Origin: Acidobacteriota bacterium
GTDB taxonomy: Bacteria > Acidobacteriota > Thermoanaerobaculia > UBA5066 > Gp7-AA6
Reading direction: 5' to 3'
Length of the DNA: 64,000 nucleotides
NCBI GenBank assembly: GCA_046726795.1
Contig: JBKPBH010000027.1
Location: forward strand, 4,215-68,214
The position numbers and the translations under genes are program-made. The notes under the pieces were generated by a model, which was not told the origin of the DNA, did not search any database, and saw nothing but the letters and a program-made list of their open reading frames with translations. Shown in pieces: positions 1-62,571 of the stretch; the first letter of the stretch is position 1, and each line of letters opens with the position of its first letter.

Positions 1-298
1 AGCGGGCACCGTGACGGACAAGATGGCGCCGGTGCTGCGCAAGATCTATGACCAGATGCCCGAGCCCAAGTGGGTCATCTCCATGGGGGTCTGCGCCTCT
101 TCGGGAGGGTTCTACCGCGCCTACCACGTCACCCAGGGGATCGACGAGATCATCCCGGTGGACGTCTACGTGCCCGGCTGTCCTCCCACGCCCGAGGAGC
201 TGATGTACGGGATCTTCGAACTGCAACGCAAGATCCGGTCGGGCGAGATGTCGCGGGACAGCCGGTCGGCGAAGCGGGCGGCGGAAAGACCCGCTTGA
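1..298 (+). CDS. nuoB: NADH-quinone oxidoreductase subunit B, C-terminal fragment (5' end outside window)
   Basis: ORF 11..298 has the NuoB C-terminal motifs ([22 protein letters not shown]); the frame is open to the window edge. Confidence 0.9.
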
Positions 299-2025
299 GT
301 GCCGTCGCGTCTCCTTCCCTTTCCGCTCCGGCGGAGCGGATCCGCGAGCGCCTTTCCTCCTCGCCCTTGTCTGAGAGGGTCCAGGTCCGGGACCTGGACC
401 TGCCCACTCTCGAGGTCTCTCCGGCCGACTGGCCCGCGCTGGCCCGGTGGCTGCGGGACGATCCCGAATGCCGCTATGACCTCTTCCTCGACCTCGCCGG
501 CGTGGACAACCTGCGGAGGCCGGGACAGAAGGCCCGCTTCGAAGCGGTCGTCCATCTCCACTCACTGCCACGCAACGAGCACGTTCGTGTCAAGGTCCTC
601 CTGCCCGACGGCGCACCTCCTTCGCTTCCGACGGTTCGCGAGGTCTGGCCCGCCTCCGATTGGTTCGAGCGAGAGGCCTACGACCTCTTCGGGTTCGACT
701 TCCCGGGGCACCCCAACCTGCGCCGCATCCTGTGCCACGACGCCTTCGTCGGGCACGCGCTGCGCAAGGACTATGCGCCCGGACAGCGCTGGTTCGCGGC
801 GGAAGAGGACCTGAAGATGCCCCCCTGGGCGCTCGAGACGGGCGCCCACGCCGGGCACTTCGAGACGCAGACCCTGTCGATCGGTCCGTCGCATCCGGCC
901 ACCCACGGGATCATTCACCTGATCGCCCGGCTGGACGGAGAGCGCATCACCCGCGCCGAGACGCAGATCGGCTATCTCCACCGCTGCTTCGAGAAGATGT
1001 CCGAGACGCACACCTGGAACGGCGTCATTCCGTACGCCGACCGGTTGAACTACGTCTCGGCCATGAACAACGGCGTGGGCTACGTCCGGACCGTCGAGAA
1101 AATGCTCGGGATCGAGATCCCGGACCGCGGCGTGCTCGTGCGCACGATTCTCTCGGAGTTCTCGCGCATCATGGACCACTGCGTCAACATCGGAGCGAAC
1201 CTGGTGGACATCGGAGCGCTGACGAACTTCTGGTACCTCTACCAGCCGCGCGAGACGATCTACGACTTGCTCGAGGCCTGCTGCGGCGCCCGGCTGACCG
1301 TGTCCTACGTGCGCGTCGGAGGGCTCGCGATCGACGTCCCCGAGGACTTCGTGCCTCGCTGCCGGAGCCTCCTCGAGTCCATCCCGAAGTTCTTAGACGA
1401 CGTGGACCGCCTCGTCACGAACAACCGGATCGTGCGAGGCCGCCTCCAGGGCACCGGCGTCGTCTCTCGAGAGGACGCGGTCGCCTGGGGATTGACGGGT
1501 CCGATGCTACGCGCCTCCGGAGTCCCGTACGATGTCCGCCGCTCCCGTCCCTACGACTTCTACGACCGGTTCGACTGGGACATCCCGGTCTCCTCTGACG
1601 GCGACAGTTTCTCGCGCTATCTCGTCCGCATGGAGGAGATGCGCCAGTCGCTCTCGATCATCCGGCAGGCCCTGGAGATCTTCCCCGAGAAGGGCCCCGT
1701 CAACTCCAGCGACTGGCACGTCGTCCTGCCGCCCAAAGACGCCGTCTACCACGACATGGAATCGCTCATCTACCACTTCAAGCTGGTCATGGAGGGGATC
1801 AAGGTCCCCCGGGGCGAACGCTACGAATGGGTCGAGGGGGCCAACGGGGAGCTCGGCTTCTACGCCATCTCGGAGGGGTCGGGCGGCCCCTACCGGCTGA
1901 AGGTGCGCCCTCCGTGCTTTCCCATGATGGCGGCATTCGAGAAGATCGTGGTCGGCGGCACGATCTCCGATGCCATCGCGACGCTCGGGACCCTGAACAT
2001 CATCGCGGGAGAGCTCGACCGGTGA
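295..2025 (+). CDS. nuoCD: NADH-quinone oxidoreductase fused subunit C/D
   Basis: N-terminal half is NuoC-like ([24 protein letters not shown]), C-terminal half is NuoD-like ([11 protein letters not shown]...[33 protein letters not shown]). Start taken at TTG 295 overlapping the nuoB stop; no in-frame ATG before residue ~170. Confidence 0.88.
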
Positions 2026-27247: not shown

Positions 27248-28591
27248 ATGCCCCGCGCCACGACGGTTTTCGCGTGCCAGTCCTGCGGGGCTTCGTCGTC
27301 CAAGTGGCTCGGCCGCTGCCCGGACTGCGGGGAGTGGAACAGCTACGTCGAGGAGCTTCGGGCGGAGAGGGCCGCTCCGCAGGCGGCCCTCCCCGCCTCG
27401 ATGGCGCAGGTGCAGGGCGAAGCGAGCACGCGGCTGGCGACCGGCCTGCCGGGTCTCGACCGGGTGCTCGGCGGAGGACTGGTCGCGGGTTCGGTCGTTC
27501 TTCTGGGCGGCGAGCCCGGCATCGGCAAGTCCACCTTTCTCCTCCAGGCGGCCCGCGCCCTCGCGACACTGGGCGGCGATGTCCTCTACGCCACCGCGGA
27601 GGAGTCGGCGGCTCAGGTCCGGATGCGAGGCGAGCGGCTTCGCGTGCGGGAGGAGACCCTGCTGCTCGCCGCCGAAACGGACGTCGAGCGCGTCGTCGCG
27701 GCCGCCGAGCGCCGCCCGCCGGCGCTGCTGATCGTGGACTCCATCCAGGCCGTTCGAGAACCGGCTCTCTCGTCGGCGGCCGGCACAGTCACGCAGGTGC
27801 GCGAGTGCGCCTCGGTCCTGCAGCGGTTCGCCAAGACGCGAGACGTGCCGGTCATCCTGATCGGCCACGTGACCAAGGACGGCAGCCTCGCCGGTCCCAA
27901 ATCGCTCGAGCACCTCGTGGACACCGTCCTGACGCTCGAAGGGGAGAGGACCTCTCTGCGGCGCGTCCTGCGCGCCACGAAGAACCGGTTCGGGCCGGTC
28001 GAGGAGCTCGCGCTTTACGACATGACCGGGGAGGGTCTTTCCGAGATCTCCAATCCTTCGGCTGCGCTCCTGGCCGAGCGGCGGGCCGGCCTTCCGGGCA
28101 GCGCCGTGACGGCCACGCGGGAAGGGTCCCGTTGCCTTCTCGTGGAGATCCAGGCACTCGTCGGGCCGCCGGCGGCGGGCTCCCCCCGGCGTGTGGCGAT
28201 CGGTTTCGATCCCGGACGGCTCGCCCTTCTCCTGGCCGTTCTCGAAGGGTCGGGCCTGCCGCTGGCGTCCCGGGAGGTCTTCGTCTCCTGCGCGGGAGGC
28301 CTCTCCACCGCCGAGCCCGCGGCGGACCTGGCCGCGGTGGCGGCGCTGGCCTCTTCCGCCCGAGGGCGCGCCATCCCCGCGGACGTCGTCTGCTTCGGCG
28401 AAATCGGATTGCTCGGCGAAGTTCGTCGAGTTCCGGCGGCCAGCTCCCGTCTGAAGGAGGCCGTGGCCATGGGCTTTCAAACAGTTTACCTGCCCTCCGG
28501 AGACGCGGCGGAAGCCGGGCGCTTTCAGGATCTCGCGATCCGCCCCGTCGAGCGGGTCAGGGACTTCGTCCAGGAGATTTGTGATTTGTGA
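27248..28591 (+). CDS. radA: DNA repair protein RadA/Sms
   Basis: N-terminal Zn ribbon CQSCGASSSKWLGRCPDCGEW, RecA-like Walker A GEPGIGKST, KNRFG motif, Lon-like C-terminus. Confidence 0.95.
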   Translation: MPRATTVFACQSCGASSSKWLGRCPDCGEWNSYVEELRAERAAPQAALPASMAQVQGEASTRLATGLPGLDRVLGGGLVAGSVVLLGGEPGIGKSTFLLQAARALATLGGDVLYATAEESAAQVRMRGERLRVREETLLLAAETDVERVVAAAERRPPALLIVDSIQAVREPALSSAAGTVTQVRECASVLQRFAKTRDVPVILIGHVTKDGSLAGPKSLEHLVDTVLTLEGERTSLRRVLRATKNRFGPVEELALYDMTGEGLSEISNPSAALLAERRAGLPGSAVTATREGSRCLLVEIQALVGPPAAGSPRRVAIGFDPGRLALLLAVLEGSGLPLASREVFVSCAGGLSTAEPAADLAAVAALASSARGRAIPADVVCFGEIGLLGEVRRVPAASSRLKEAVAMGFQTVYLPSGDAAEAGRFQDLAIRPVERVRDFVQEICDL

Positions 28592-28659
28592 TTGTTGATT
28601 TGTGATTTGTGATCAGGGCAGCAAGCGTCGCTTCGCCCCCTCACTCATCACAAATCACC
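28576..28659. repeat. Tandem heptamer array (GATTTGT x5) spanning the radA stop codon, with a downstream inverted copy
   Basis: gatttgt gatttgt gattgtt gatttgt gatttgt encodes the last radA codons (ICDL*); atcacaaatcac at 28647-28658 is the reverse complement of gtgatttgtgat at 28581-28592 (12 bp stem). Confidence 0.6.
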
Positions 28660-28673
28660 TCGCCGATTGTCCA

Positions 28674-29255
28674 TCAAAGCGATGGCCGAAAACGAGGTGA
28701 GCGCTCGTTCTCTCGCTCCAAGGACACGAGAAGCCGCAAGGGCGCGGGGCCGGGCGAATCGGGCGGGAAAGGGGCGATCAGGGTGACGCGGGCGGCCGGA
28801 TCCAGCTGGAATGCGGCCGGTTCGAACGTTCGCCGCTCCACCACCCGGTAGCGCCGCAGACCCAGGGAAGTCGTCAGGCGGACCCGGTCGCCAAGCCTCA
28901 TCCGGCCGACCGCCTGGGCGCATCGCCCTCGCGAGATCGCGATCGCCGAGGGCGTGCCGGTCTTCTCCTCTCCGGGCAGCGCCGTCTCCGGCACGTGACC
29001 GGCGCCCCGGGCGAGTGTGTTCGCCGCAATCCCCTCGAGCACGGGCGCATCGAGCGCCAGTCGCGCCACGGTCAACCGGGCGATGAGGTCGCCCTCCGGG
29101 ATTCGGGACGCGCGGGCCCCCGACGAAGAGCGAACCACGCTTCCTGCCCGCCGTTCGATTCCGGAATAGACATCCCGCGCGAAGGGAACGGTGAACAGGA
29201 TCCCGAACCCGAGACCGACGGAAGTTAAGGCCGGAGCGAGCCTGTGGGAGAACAT
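28674..29255 (-). CDS. Sortase-like transpeptidase-fold protein (possibly catalytically degenerate)
   Basis: N-terminal TM; sortase-like layout ...LARGAGHVPETALPGEEKTGTPSAIAISRGR...LGDRVRLTT..YRVVERRTFEP...VTLIAPFP. By my alignment the canonical AGHR His and TLxTC Cys positions read SRGR and TLIAP. Confidence 0.4.
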   Translation of the reverse strand: MFSHRLAPALTSVGLGFGILFTVPFARDVYSGIERRAGSVVRSSSGARASRIPEGDLIARLTVARLALDAPVLEGIAANTLARGAGHVPETALPGEEKTGTPSAIAISRGRCAQAVGRMRLGDRVRLTTSLGLRRYRVVERRTFEPAAFQLDPAARVTLIAPFPPDSPGPAPLRLLVSLERENERSPRFRPSL

Positions 29256-29329
29256 TTTTCTGGAGCCGGATAGCCTGGCGCCCGGCCCCGCCCGAGGGCG
29301 AGGACCGGGCGCAGGAGTCCTGTTTGGAT

Positions 29330-29983
29330 CTAGAGGGTCTTCCGACCGATCAGCAAGCCGGCCGCTATGAGGGCGAGGCCTGCCAGGGCCATTCGAGGAA
29401 ACACGGAGGCCGTCTTGGGGAGCGTCGTCTCGGCCGGAGCCGGCGCAGCCGGAGGCGGAACGTACGCGGGCGCCGGGGGCGCCGGGGCGGGCGCCGCGGG
29501 TTCCGGAGGGGGCGCGGCCATGGTCGAAGTCGAGGTCGATGTCGTGCTCTGCGCGATGACGGTGGAGGTCGTCGTGATGCCCACCTCCTTGCGGTCGATG
29601 ACCTCTCCGCTCACGTTCAAGGCGACGACCGCGATCCGGTGACTCCCCGGGGGGACGCTGTCGATCGTGGCGGTATTGGACTCCGTCCCCTTCAGCGTGG
29701 CCTTGCGTTGATTATCGAGATAGACGTCGAAGCGCGGCTGCGGGAAGTTGGCCTCTCCGAAACGGGTGCCCTGGCCCGCCCCGAAGACCTGGTGGTTGTA
29801 GTCCACGGTGACGCGGACGCTGCTTCCGGAGATGGTGGCGCCCTCGGCGGGCTCCATCAGCTTCAACTTGAGAGTGTTCTTGGTCGGGCCGCCGGTGTTC
29901 GGGTCGGCGTTCTGGGCGAGAGCCGTTCCGGCAAAGGCGCAAAGGGCGACTGCGGCGATGAGGGTCGAGATTCTCCTGCGCAT
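29330..29983 (-). CDS. Secreted protein with C-terminal sortase-type sorting signal (LPKTA + TM + basic tail)
   Basis: Signal peptide MRRRISTLIAAVALCAFAGTALAQ, globular domain, Pro/Ala/Thr-rich linker, then ETTLPKTASVFPRMALAGLALIAAGLLIGRKTL; strong SD aggaaggaga upstream. Confidence 0.55.
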   Translation of the reverse strand: MRRRISTLIAAVALCAFAGTALAQNADPNTGGPTKNTLKLKLMEPAEGATISGSSVRVTVDYNHQVFGAGQGTRFGEANFPQPRFDVYLDNQRKATLKGTESNTATIDSVPPGSHRIAVVALNVSGEVIDRKEVGITTTSTVIAQSTTSTSTSTMAAPPPEPAAPAPAPPAPAYVPPPAAPAPAETTLPKTASVFPRMALAGLALIAAGLLIGRKTL

Positions 29984-30115
29984 GGTCTCTCCTTCCTGTG
30001 AGGGCGACGCCCAAAAAGCGACGCCGAGGAGAGGCGAAGCAAATGCCGGGCCAATATCAACGGGACGGCCCAGGTTTCAAGGTCCAAGCCTCGAGGGGCC
30101 CGAAGCTTGAGCCTT

Positions 30116-31003
30116 CTAGAGCCGGCAGTCTTCTCCGGTCAGGGTCCTGTAGGCCTCGAGGTATTTCTCGCGCGTCGTGCGGACCACTCCCTCCGGAAGA
30201 CGCGGCGCGGGAGGCCGCCGGTCCCAGCCCGTCGAGTCGAGCCAGTCTCGGACGAACTGCTTGTCCAGCGAGTGCGGGCTGTGCCCCGGCCTGTAGTGGG
30301 CCGAATCCCAGTAGCGCGAGGAATCGGGGGTGAACGCTTCGTCGATCCAGACGAGACGCCCTTCCACTCGCCCGAACTCGAGCTTCGTGTCCGCCAGAAT
30401 CAATCCCCGGGAGGCCGCATGATCCCGCGCCCGGCAGTAGAGGTCGAGCGTCAAGTCGCGCAGCCGCTCGGCTTCTTCGCGGCCGGTCTGGTTGACCATC
30501 TCATCGAAGGTAACGTTCTCGTCGTGGCCGCGCTCGCTTTTTGTCGCCGGAGTGAAGATGGGGCGAGAGAGACGGTCGGCCTCGACGAGCCCCGCCGGAA
30601 GGCGGACTCCACAAACCTGCTTCGTCTTTCTGTACTCCGCCCAGCCCGAGCCCGCGAGGTAACCGCGAGCCACGCACTCGAACGGAATCACCTCGGCCTT
30701 TCGAACGATCACCGAGCGCCCGGCGAGCATGGCTCGGTCGGACTGGAGCGGTTCGGGGAAGCGCTCGACTTCCGTTTCGATCAGGTGGTTCTCGACGTCG
30801 ACGAACTTTCGGAACCAGAAATTCGAAAGCTGAGTCAGGATCTTCCCCTTGTCGGGAACCCCCGGTGACAGGACGCAATCGAAGGCCGAGATGCGGTCGC
30901 TCGCGACGAGGAGAAGGCTGTCCCCGAGGTCGTAGAGCTCACGGACCTTGCCGCGCCGGGACAGGCGAGCGCCGGAGAGGTGAGTTTCCACGACGGCGGC
31001 CAT
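30116..31003 (-). CDS. purC: Phosphoribosylaminoimidazole-succinocarboxamide synthase
   Basis: SAICAR synthetase motifs (GKVRELYD, LILADTKLEFG). Confidence 0.95.
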   Translation of the reverse strand: MAAVVETHLSGARLSRRGKVRELYDLGDSLLLVASDRISAFDCVLSPGVPDKGKILTQLSNFWFRKFVDVENHLIETEVERFPEPLQSDRAMLAGRSVIVRKAEVIPFECVARGYLAGSGWAEYRKTKQVCGVRLPAGLVEADRLSRPIFTPATKSERGHDENVTFDEMVNQTGREEAERLRDLTLDLYCRARDHAASRGLILADTKLEFGRVEGRLVWIDEAFTPDSSRYWDSAHYRPGHSPHSLDKQFVRDWLDSTGWDRRPPAPRLPEGVVRTTREKYLEAYRTLTGEDCRL

Positions 31004-55621: not shown

Positions 55622-56356
55622 CTAGTGCAAGTTGAACGTCACGGTCACGGTCAGGTACACGCGCACCGCCCTCCCGTTGAGGGTGGCGGGCTTGTATCTC
55701 CATTGCTGCACCGCGCGGACCGCGGAGGCATCCAGCAGCGGATTGACGGACTTCAAGACCTTCACGTCCTCGACGCTGCCGGAAGCCGTGATGATGGCCT
55801 CCAGGATGACGACGCCTTCCATCCGGGCCTTGCGCGCCGCCTCGGGATAGGTCGGCTCGACGCGGTTGGTCAGGACGGGGGCCTTGACCTCGCCTCCGAC
55901 TCGAAGCGGCTCGCCTTCGCCCGTGCCGGGTCCCGTGCCGCCCGGCACTCCGCCCAGGACGCCGCCCGGCACCCCGCCTTCGACGCCGCCCGGGACGCCG
56001 CCTTCCACCCCGGCCGGCGCCTCCGGCTCGGGCGCGGAGAGCGGCTTGGGGATGTTCTCGGGAATGATGGTCGGCGCCACCATCTCCGTCGGCCGGACCG
56101 GCACCTGCTTCTGGACCTCGGGCGCCTTGGGCTTGGGCGCCGGGGCAGCCGCCGGGGGCGGGGGGGGTGGGGGGGGGGCCGAGGCGTAGAAGGTGACCGG
56201 AATCGGAGGCTCCGGCACGTCTTCGACGAACCAGATCGAGGCGCCGAGCGCGATGCCGATGACGATCGCGTGGATGGCGATCGACACGGGCAGGGTCACG
56301 GCCTTGCGCGAATCCCCCTTGTGAGGAGCCGATTCGATCAGCGACTCTTCGAACAT
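55622..56356 (-). CDS. tonB: Energy transducer TonB
   Basis: N-terminal TM, Pro-rich spacer (PPPPPPPPAAAPAPKPKAPE) and TonB C-terminal domain. Confidence 0.8.
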   Translation of the reverse strand: MFEESLIESAPHKGDSRKAVTLPVSIAIHAIVIGIALGASIWFVEDVPEPPIPVTFYASAPPPPPPPPAAAPAPKPKAPEVQKQVPVRPTEMVAPTIIPENIPKPLSAPEPEAPAGVEGGVPGGVEGGVPGGVLGGVPGGTGPGTGEGEPLRVGGEVKAPVLTNRVEPTYPEAARKARMEGVVILEAIITASGSVEDVKVLKSVNPLLDASAVRAVQQWRYKPATLNGRAVRVYLTVTVTFNLH

Positions 56357-61452: not shown

Positions 61453-61928
61453 GGCGTGCGGCGGGGGACGCCGCGCCATGGAATCGGGAAGAGCGCACCG
61501 AGAGCGAGCAGGAGACCGAGCGGTTCGGCGTGCGTCTGGCGGCCGCGGTCGGGCCGGGCGACGTTGTCTATCTGGTCGGCCGGCTCGGCGCGGGCAAGAC
61601 CGCTCTGGCGCGGGGGCTGGCGCGGGGTCTCGGGGCGTCCGCGGGCCAGGTCGCCTCGCCGAGCTTTGCGATCCTCCACGAGTACGCGGGGGCGTTGGGC
61701 GAAATCGTGCTGCGCCACCTGGATCTCTATCGCCTGAAAGACGAGGAAAAAGAGCTGGCGATCCTGGGGCTGCCCGGCGCGGTGTCGGACGCTCCGGTGG
61801 CCGTCGAATGGCCCGGTCAGGCGATCGGGAAGCTTCTCCCGCCGACGATCGAGGTCCGCATCGAGGTGCTCGGGGACGCCGCTCGGAAGATCGGGCTCGT
61901 CAGAAGGCGAGGATCAGCCCGCCGTTGA
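61449..61928 (+). CDS. tsaE: tRNA threonylcarbamoyladenosine biosynthesis protein TsaE
   Basis: P-loop GRLGAGKT; ATGA overlap with nnr. Confidence 0.85.
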   Translation: MRRAAGDAAPWNREERTESEQETERFGVRLAAAVGPGDVVYLVGRLGAGKTALARGLARGLGASAGQVASPSFAILHEYAGALGEIVLRHLDLYRLKDEEKELAILGLPGAVSDAPVAVEWPGQAIGKLLPPTIEVRIEVLGDAARKIGLVRRRGSARR

Positions 61929-62571
61929 TGTCCCCGTTGCCCAGCCAGTCGCTCCGGTTGCGATCGCAGCGGCGCGTCGAATCGCAGCGGTCGCCGCGCA
62001 GGAGAGTGCCGTAGTAGCGACCGTCGAAGCGGAACCCGAAGTGCGGCGTCGCGAAAGTCTTGATCCCCGCGCCGGCGCTGGCCGTGTAACACCAGTCCGC
62101 GCCAGGGTTGGAGCAGGGCTGCGGCCGGACCCTGCAGACGTCTGGGTCCAGGCGCGCGGCTCCCATCCCGAACGTCACGTAGGGGACGACGCGCCGGTGG
62201 CCGAAGTTGAAGGTCATGTAGCCCAGGGTGTAGTCGATCGTCAGGTCTCCCAGGCGGCCGCGGGACGACTCGAAGAGCACGTCGCCGCCCGGGCTCTCGA
62301 AGTGGGTCTCGGTCCGGGAGAATTGCGCCTCGGCCTCGAAGGTGCTGGTGATGTTCCATCCGATGCGGCCGCCGTAGGTCACGCGGTCTTCCACATCCAC
62401 CTTGCTCGTGAAGAGCCCGTTGCTTCCCGCCGGGAAGCGTCCGCCGAAGAGATATCCCCCGAAGGGATTGATTTCCACGGTGCCGGAACGGATCTGAGCC
62501 AGAGAGACGCGAGCGAAGAGAGGAGAGAAGAGGACGAACAGCCCGAGCAGCGCGATCTGGGATTTCCTCAT
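61900..62571 (-). CDS. Outer-membrane beta-barrel protein (OmpW/OmpA-like)
   Basis: Signal peptide, alternating beta-strand pattern, C-terminal ...GGLILAF ending in F. Confidence 0.6.
   Translation of the reverse strand: MRKSQIALLGLFVLFSPLFARVSLAQIRSGTVEINPFGGYLFGGRFPAGSNGLFTSKVDVEDRVTYGGRIGWNITSTFEAEAQFSRTETHFESPGGDVLFESSRGRLGDLTIDYTLGYMTFNFGHRRVVPYVTFGMGAARLDPDVCRVRPQPCSNPGADWCYTASAGAGIKTFATPHFGFRFDGRYYGTLLRGDRCDSTRRCDRNRSDWLGNGDINGGLILAF

Follow-up and report, generated by a model that had tools for sequence, protein, structure and literature searches.

The window analyzed here, a stretch of 64,000 nucleotides (nt) of acidobacterial DNA, contains two neighboring genes that code for a sortase-like protein and for a small protein ending in a sortase-type sorting signal, referred to below as the target. 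Both open reading frames (ORFs) lie on the minus strand in the order target gene, 74-nt gap and sortase-like gene. A first-pass annotation of the sequence had proposed this co-directional pair, and the ORFs of 217 and 193 amino acids (aa) are present where it had placed them. The 193-aa protein has a predicted sortase fold and is kept under purifying selection, and the catalytic Cys and His of sortases are replaced in this protein as well as throughout its clade.

29330..29983, minus strand: target gene, 217 aa (ORF read from the sequence)
28674..29255, minus strand: gene of the sortase-fold protein, a predicted pseudoenzyme of 193 aa (PF04203 match, AlphaFold2 [AF2] model, Foldseek and the ratio of nonsynonymous to synonymous substitution rates [dN/dS])

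The target protein and its sorting signal

The target starts with a signal-peptide-like sequence (MRRRISTLIAAVALCAFAGTALA|QNAD), with the signal peptide read from the sequence as aa 1 to 23. The conserved mature N terminus QNADxNTGGPT precedes an FN3/Ig-like β-sandwich of ~100 residues (~aa 38 to 140), which is followed by a Ser/Thr/Pro-rich linker (~aa 141 to 186) and the sorting signal. Searches against Pfam show no VIT or vWA domain in the protein, which has the FN3-like sandwich instead. The C terminus reads exactly LPKTAS-VFPRMALAGLALIAAGLLIG-RKTL, comprised of the motif, 20 hydrophobic residues and a basic tail, and AF2 predicts a helix at residues 195 to 216.

29405..29422, minus strand: LPKTAS motif of the sorting signal, aa 188 to 193 (sequence)
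29333..29404, minus strand: VFPR, hydrophobic helix MALAGLALIAAGLLIG and basic tail RKTL, aa 194 to 217 (sequence, AF2)

The combination of an LPxT[GA] motif, a hydrophobic helix of ~20 residues and a basic C-terminal end with an N-terminal signal peptide identifies the tail as an LPXTG-type signal. The first-pass annotation had singled out this LPKTA-helix-RK terminus, and the tripartite tail is indeed kept in 119 of the 120 target homologs listed, which argues against a chance pattern. Within the motif, P189 and T191 never vary. The first position holds Leu, in rare cases Met or Ile, the third is unconstrained, the fifth is restricted to Ala or Gly, and the sixth to Ser or Thr. Homolog tails carry a Pro two residues past LPxT[AG][ST], followed by the helix and the basic tail, and A199, G202, G209, and R214 of the target tail are invariant. 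The curated sorting-signal hidden Markov models (HMMs) do not match the target (NF058670 [LPxTATN], 13 versus 32 bits; TIGR04383, 14.1 versus 50 bits; PF00746, no match); a precomputed PF00746 match is carried by a few target homologs. The dN/dS of the target gene (0.09 to 0.30) is similar to that of the sortase-like gene.

A second conserved element is found at the other end of the mature protein. The mature N terminus, QNADxN(T/S)(G/A)(G/A)PT(K/R)N (residues 24 to 47; window positions 29840 to 29915, minus strand), is near-invariant in target branches linked to Cys/His-less sortases as well as in those linked to active ones. These residues are modeled at low confidence, with a predicted local distance difference test score (pLDDT) of 51 to 64. 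Such an invariant and apparently disordered peptide suggests a binding or modification site.

A sortase fold lacking the catalytic Cys and His

The 193-aa protein passes the Pfam family PF04203 (Sortase) with 31.6 bits against a gathering cutoff of 26.6, and its residues 61 to 178 cover positions 1 to 121 of the 125 positions of the profile. The AF2 model, built with 51 sequences, has a pLDDT of 86, exceeding 93 across the barrel. It consists of a predicted N-terminal membrane helix (aa 6 to 36), a linker and an eight-stranded sortase barrel (aa 55 to 181, β1 to β8). A Foldseek search with this model returns solved sortases of classes C, A, and D with a probability of 1.00 (E value of 4.5e-11), and the best sequence matches are solved sortases as well, with E values of 3.7e-07 for the single sequence (phmmer) and 5.9e-15 for the family profile (hmmsearch). 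The sortase-like, membrane-anchored layout noted in the first-pass annotation is thereby borne out. Its proposal hinged on a significant sortase HMM match and on conservation of the signal in orthologs, and both are found. A sortase-fold, N-terminally anchored protein paired with one LPxTA-type sorting-signal protein in a diderm genome is thus supported.

The class of the protein is a different matter. The proteobacterial class GN model to which the first-pass annotation had pointed, TIGR03784, scores 31.8 bits against a cutoff of 158.25, and the target does not belong to the VIT/vWA proteins. The models of class D (NF033746, 33.4 versus 165 bits), class E (NF033747, 39.3 versus 160 bits) and class C (NF033745, 26.1 versus 160 bits) also remain below their cutoffs. 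With scores of 26 to 39 bits against cutoffs of 158 to 165 for these NCBIfam models, filing the protein under a named sortase class is ruled out. Some database sources name members of the clade "class D sortase" or "sortase A".

In textbooks, sortases are cysteine transpeptidases, and they are widely used as tools of protein engineering; to our knowledge, every described sortase uses a His/Cys/Arg triad. Aligning the window protein with active relatives and with solved chains of SrtC and SrtD places its catalytic positions unambiguously.

28932..28934, minus strand: Ser108 codon, position of the catalytic His (xHRD in active relatives; alignments)
28770..28772, minus strand: Pro162 codon, position of the catalytic Cys (TLxTC changed to TLIAP; alignments)
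28734..28736, minus strand: Arg174 codon, retained third triad residue (GPAPxR; invariant in the Cys/His-less and the active clades)

Ser108 (IAISRG) stands where the catalytic His follows β4, a position with His in 100% of the active relatives and Pro, Ala, Ser, Thr, or Arg in the clade of the window protein. Pro162 (TLIAP) stands at the end of β7 in place of the Cys of TLxTC, which is present in 100% of the active relatives and replaced by Pro, Ala, or Ser in the clade. Arg174 (GPAPLR), at the start of β8, is invariant and the sole triad residue kept. The single Cys of the window protein, C112, is not conserved, and Cys is entirely absent from 6 of the 16 clade members examined. N102, H108, F113, C162, and F165 are invariant in the active relatives and all five are unconstrained in the Cys/His-less clade, in which the fold-defining residues and R174 stay invariant. 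Two residues of the N-terminal membrane segment, R5 and L20, are conserved in this clade only and not in the active relatives.

The loss extends over the whole clade. All 103 of the closer homolog clusters (P0001 to P0103) lack both Cys and His, and the more distant clusters P0104 to P0109 have both. A scan of one genome per GTDB species with the peptide pattern GH[VL]P[GE]TALPG retrieved 80 loci, of which 56 have active forms and 24, each from a different Thermoanaerobaculia/Acidobacteriota genome, have the Cys/His-less form. In an exhaustive profile search of 1.84 billion representative proteins, the top 17 representatives all lack those catalytic residues that they cover, followed by a clean switch, with His and Cys present in 133 of the 150 listed; no intermediates with a loss of only Cys or only His occur among these 150. 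With more than 100 independent sequences sharing these substitutions, a sequencing error is excluded. All 100 of 100 neighbor-joining (NJ) bootstraps recover the clade as monophyletic, and it is nested among active sortases of the Thermoanaerobaculia type, with the active clade of loci L030 to L034, L049, and L063 as its NJ sister. Cys and His appear to have been lost together in a Thermoanaerobaculia ancestor, in one event.

The 193-aa protein is therefore predicted with high confidence to be unable to act as a canonical cysteine transpeptidase. The first-pass annotation had proposed a working dedicated sortase, a reading contradicted by the clade-wide replacement of Cys and His. Such an enzyme would cleave its neighbor at LPKT|A and attach it to the diderm envelope, in agreement with the significant HMM match, the sortase fold, the adjoining conserved tripartite signal and the active homologous systems in related clades. 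Every characterized sortase depends on its thiol nucleophile and catalytic His; their absence, together with class-specific NCBIfam scores far below all cutoffs, makes this highly improbable.

The loss of catalytic residues might also indicate decay, with a functionless sortase-like ORF and a target tail serving as a mere membrane anchor that carries an ancestral motif; one locus (L011) has no target. Against this stand dN/dS values of 0.08 to 0.29 for the sortase-like gene in 23 pairwise comparisons, with the ORF intact across 24 species and over 100 clusters. Seventeen positions are invariant across members with 36 to 80% identity to the window protein, and the motif keeps its sortase-signal pattern across a deep clade. 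Since purifying selection acts on the gene, the reading as a decaying relic is rejected as scarcely credible, and the 193-aa protein is taken with high confidence to be a functional, selected protein. Loss of the essential catalytic residues under continued purifying selection characterizes it as a pseudoenzyme, the lack of activity being predicted from the sequence.

Strong purifying selection and a retained substrate motif, including the scissile Thr-Ala/Gly, would equally fit an enzyme whose sortase fold cuts or transfers LPxT[AG] independently of Cys, through a noncanonical site containing, e.g., His87, Arg174, Arg109, Thr158, or Asp166. Within the clade, His87, Arg109, Thr158, and Arg174 vary little or not at all, and Asp166 reaches a conservation of at least 90%. 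The former four residues are not new acquisitions, however, because they are equally conserved in active sortases. No replacement nucleophile has been fixed, as the site of the lost Cys holds Pro, Ala, or Ser and that of the lost His holds Pro, Ala, Ser, Thr, or Arg. N102, F113, and F165 around the active center are also relaxed, so that the site looks abandoned rather than remodeled. We know of no Cys-independent sortase, and chemistry of this kind is considered improbable.

Active relatives and genomic context

A homolog of the FN3-like target lies directly upstream of the pseudo-sortase gene in 23 of the 24 genomes with a Cys/His-less locus according to the family HMM, and the sorting signal is kept in 22 of the 24 loci by a strict pattern. 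The gene order purC, target, pseudo-sortase, radA, mla recurs in distant members of the clade. Locus L011 (2710 to 3537) keeps purC and the Cys-less sortase and lacks the FN3-like target gene between them, leaving a gap of ~270 nt; an adjoining partner is thus not needed for the pseudo-sortase to persist. Locus L008 (3615 to 4310) has a second, paralogous FN3-like target (ending in ...ALPKTASPYAALALAGAALLTTGLLLARKVR) directly downstream, in the order target, pseudo-sortase, target. A covarying salt bridge between Arg197 of the target and Asp166 of the pseudo-sortase was considered and ruled out, because Asp166 is retained in subclades whose targets carry Glu, Thr, or Gln at residue 197.

The FN3-like family extends beyond the Cys/His-less clade, with 265 matches to a query of the L046 type. 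In four of five further loci examined (L046, L087, L088, and L089), an active sortase (NCVIAGHRDSFF...TLITCYPF) directly follows the FN3-like target, and the signal therefore pairs with a working sortase in related clades. The clade of the window protein is thus derived from active sortases that pair with FN3-like targets. At L046 (1088 to 1918), L086 (1 to 564) and L088 (3076 to 3909), a Ku gene lies just upstream of the FN3-like target, outside the purC-radA context; this adjacency probably reflects an inherited gene order rather than a link in function.

For ~40 of the 56 active-sortase loci among the 80 retrieved, an LPxT[AGS]-type target is encoded no more than 3 kb away. Sortase/target dyads are common in diderm Acidobacteriota, and the statement of the first-pass annotation that they are rare in diderm cells does not hold within this phylum, where pairs of an active sortase and an LPxTAS target are widespread. 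Most of the other acidobacterial active sortases pair with another family of LP[KRQT]TAS proteins of ~230 to 300 aa. This second family is found at L035, L041, L053, L059, L081, and ~30 other loci (e.g., L035, 1094 to 1798) and is unrelated to the FN3-like family. Its members show the signature D.W.KKT..TFS.P...PG..LPAGTY.F...D...RH.VQIFN...LAIPNYRL.PT and end in LP[KRQT]TASxxPL, a membrane helix and Arg or Lys. They are encoded upstream of the active sortases, often with one gene between (a weak VWA match in L005).

A further set of active sortases is encoded in a conserved cluster of genes for an msbA-like ABC transporter, a TPR protein, BI-1/YccA, the sortase, a YkuD L,D-transpeptidase, an M23 peptidase and a Zn-ribbon protein (L030, L031, L032, L034, L049, and L063; e.g., L032, 2716 to 5418). 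No LPxT substrate is found within 3 kb of this L,D-transpeptidase/M23-linked clade (L030 to L034, L049, and L063), and the cluster does not occur in the 64-kb window, the part of the genome covered here. The linkage of a sortase to enzymes that cross-link and hydrolyze peptidoglycan hints at peptidoglycan attachment of sorted proteins in a diderm. One genome, DASWIB01, contains both forms, the Cys/His-less locus L017 and the active, YkuD/M23-linked sortase L032.

Between the target and the pseudo-sortase gene lies a GC-rich hairpin that may bear on the relative expression of the two.

29262..29320, minus strand: GC-rich hairpin between the target and pseudo-sortase genes, CCCGGyCCyCGC...GCGGGrCCGGG (folding)

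Folding yields -45.3 kcal/mol (z = -4.3), and each of the 21 orthologous loci that were folded (among L006 to L029) has a hairpin in the corresponding place (z of -1.1 to -5.7), with a trailing U-run in L019, L025, and L028. RNAalifold shows a conserved sequence with little covariation. A dispersed repeat is ruled out, as the core pattern has 2 matches in the window compared to 1.5 expected. The hairpin is likely a partial terminator or attenuator, or an element stabilizing the mRNA. It would probably lower the expression of the pseudo-sortase relative to that of the target, giving a high target-to-pseudo-sortase ratio.

These observations bear on a further explanation, in which an active sortase from another part of the genome would process the target in trans, with the pseudo-sortase as an accessory protein, i.e., a holdase, a specificity adaptor or a competitive regulator. 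One candidate enzyme is the Thermoanaerobaculia sortase clustered with the L,D-transpeptidase and M23 peptidase. The coexistence of both forms in DASWIB01 is in line with this, as is the conserved synteny of L030 to L034, L049, and L063 without an adjacent substrate, as expected for a housekeeping enzyme; the same clade is the NJ sister of the Cys/His-less clade. The invariant Thr followed by a small residue would fit continued cleavage of the motif, and the attenuator-like hairpin would fit an accessory needed in substoichiometric amounts. Contrary to this explanation, an active paralog is found in only 1 of the 24 genomes with a Cys/His-less sortase, which include assemblies with contigs of 4.46 Mb (L009) and 1.34 Mb (L006), and no second sortase-domain ORF is present in the 64-kb window. 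The former count stems from an exact-pattern scan whose pattern is violated by several close active sortases (L087 to L089), and the scan therefore cannot show the absence of an active paralog in the other 23 genomes. We know of no precedent for accessory pseudoenzymes of sortases, which also counts against processing in trans. Overall, such a division of labor is the strongest competitor of the favored reading, yet it is rated as rather unlikely.

The remaining features of the locus concern its boundaries and its expression.

28585..28672, strand not assigned: long, AT-rich inverted repeat with GATTTGTGA repeats, in the gap separating the 3' ends of the convergent radA and pseudo-sortase genes (folding)
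29986..29997, minus strand: Shine-Dalgarno (SD) region GGAAGGAGAG of the target gene (read from the sequence)
30053..30080, minus strand: sigma-70-like promoter candidate upstream of the target gene, TTGAAA-16-GATATT (consensus match only)

The inverted repeat folds with -35.9 kcal/mol (z = -4.3) and is a probable bidirectional terminator, at a site where a consensus terminator scan made no call. For a high-GC genome, the surrounding region (28575 to 28672) is unusually rich in AT. Its tandem GATTTGTGA units overlap the stop codon of radA and recur as the reverse complement ~50 nt on. In a subclade of homologs (P0063 to P0100), the pseudo-sortase ORF has a C-terminal extension of ~40 aa (...SATRSTGWISTLATPVVSIALPEGR). 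At L003 (10444 to 10612), it shares ~170 nt with the 3' end of the oppositely oriented radA and represents either a real extension or antisense read-through. The strong SD sequence noted in the first-pass annotation is present for the target gene only, and the sortase-like gene has none. TTGAAA-16-GATATT is the sole promoter-like site in positions 28300 to 30400, with 0.0 expected from shuffles, and as a consensus match it is not evidence of function.

The neighboring genes are housekeeping genes, with purC upstream and the convergent radA, mlaD/F/E, alr, and dnaB downstream. The window encodes MlaE, an MlaF-type ABC protein and MlaD, along with a TonB C-terminal domain protein (TonB_C; 55622 to 56356, minus strand) and an outer membrane β-barrel (OMP_b-brl; 61900 to 62571, minus strand). 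Sequence sources label the close homologs as Thermoanaerobaculia/Acidobacteriota. MlaEFD, TonB, and the outer membrane barrel confirm a diderm host cell (Thermoanaerobaculia, Acidobacteriota), as claimed in the first-pass annotation; ExbB and ExbD, which it had also listed, were not located. The window contains no other convincing sorting-signal ORF, the eight further pattern matches being overlapping out-of-frame ORFs without a real hydrophobic anchor. At positions 70 to 2025 (plus strand), the 30-kDa and 49-kDa domains of Complex I are encoded in a single ORF, which appears to specify a fusion of NuoC and NuoD.

A pseudo-sortase as a putative signal receptor

The reading favored here, with somewhat better than even confidence, is that the 193-aa protein is a membrane-anchored pseudo-sortase acting as a noncatalytic receptor that would bind the LPxT[AG] signal of its neighbor without cleaving it. 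The target would be exported by Sec and then held in the inner membrane by its C-terminal helix. The pseudo-sortase, anchored alongside by its N-terminal helix, would dock LPxT[AG] in the retained groove, of which Arg174 and the TL elements of β7 are kept. As no thioacyl intermediate would be possible, the signal is proposed to be bound and not cleaved. The sorting signal would in this way have turned into a docking or retention motif, with the FN3 domain displayed in the periplasm on a long, Pro-rich tether of ~45 residues. Alternatively, the bound signal might be presented to another enzyme. Noncovalent binding, the absence of cleavage and the cellular role of the pseudo-sortase are inferred. 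The clade-specific conservation of R5 and L20 in the membrane segment would fit a membrane-embedded partnership.

Several observations weigh against such a receptor. L011 keeps the pseudo-sortase without an adjacent target. The lower amounts of pseudo-sortase suggested by the hairpin would fit a transient factor better than a 1:1 structural partner. The strict Thr followed by a small residue corresponds to the needs of a cleaved motif and would not obviously be required for binding alone. Finally, DASWIB01 holds both the Cys/His-less L017 and the active L032, and cleavage in trans is therefore possible.

Comparative genomics has revealed Gram-negative dyads of a dedicated sortase and a single target (Comfort & Clubb 2004, cited in PMC8225981). 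The TIGR03784 class GN, or "marine", sortase occurs with an LPXTG-bearing VIT/vWA protein (Haft & Varghese 2011, PMC3237569). The pair described here resembles the class GN dyads in its diderm host, in the single sortase-fold gene beside a single protein with motif, membrane helix and basic tail and in an LP[QK]T[AS]-like motif; the class GN dyads are likewise without experimental characterization. It differs from them in the TIGR03784 score given above, in the 217-aa FN3-like target and in the missing Cys and His.

The active acidobacterial sortases (L030 to L085 and L087 to L089) are from the same phylum and the same subfamily (GPGH..TALPG, GPAPxR) and share the signal LPxTA[ST]xxP, membrane helix and Arg/Lys; the targets of L046 and L087 to L089 even belong to the same FN3-like family. 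In contrast to the clade of the window protein, which has lost all five residues, they keep N102, H108 (xHRD), F113, C162 (TLxTCYPF), and F165, and most of them pair with a target family other than the FN3-like one. Gram-positive sortases of classes C, D, and E (8t28, 3rbi, and 4d70, among others) are the best matches and have the N-terminal membrane anchor and the GxGHxxxTxLPG motif in common with the pseudo-sortase, which differs from them in its model scores (26 to 39 versus 160 to 165 bits), the absence of the catalytic Cys and His and the diderm host. The pseudoproteases CspA/CspC of Clostridioides difficile (PMC7200643) and metacaspase 4 of Trypanosoma brucei (PMC3220528) are comparable as selected enzyme homologs with replaced catalytic residues and a genetic link to the pathway of active relatives, in a different fold and system. 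Literature searches, with incomplete coverage that leaves a prior description possible, found nothing on Cys-less sortases or pseudo-sortases or on acidobacterial or Thermoanaerobaculia sortases, yielding no more than general remarks about sortase dyads of Gram-negative bacteria.

If the favored reading is correct, the 193-aa protein would be the first natural pseudo-sortase of which we are aware. An LPXTG-type signal could then be repurposed as a protein-protein docking motif or could need a noncatalytic helper. Cys-independent chemistry, if it were true instead, would define a new mechanistic class of sorting enzyme. The database labels "sortase A" and "class D sortase" are misleading for members of this clade. 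Beyond the single locus, the diderm Acidobacteriota contain a phylum-wide, unstudied set of sortase systems, which offers a handle on what sortases do in cells with an outer membrane.

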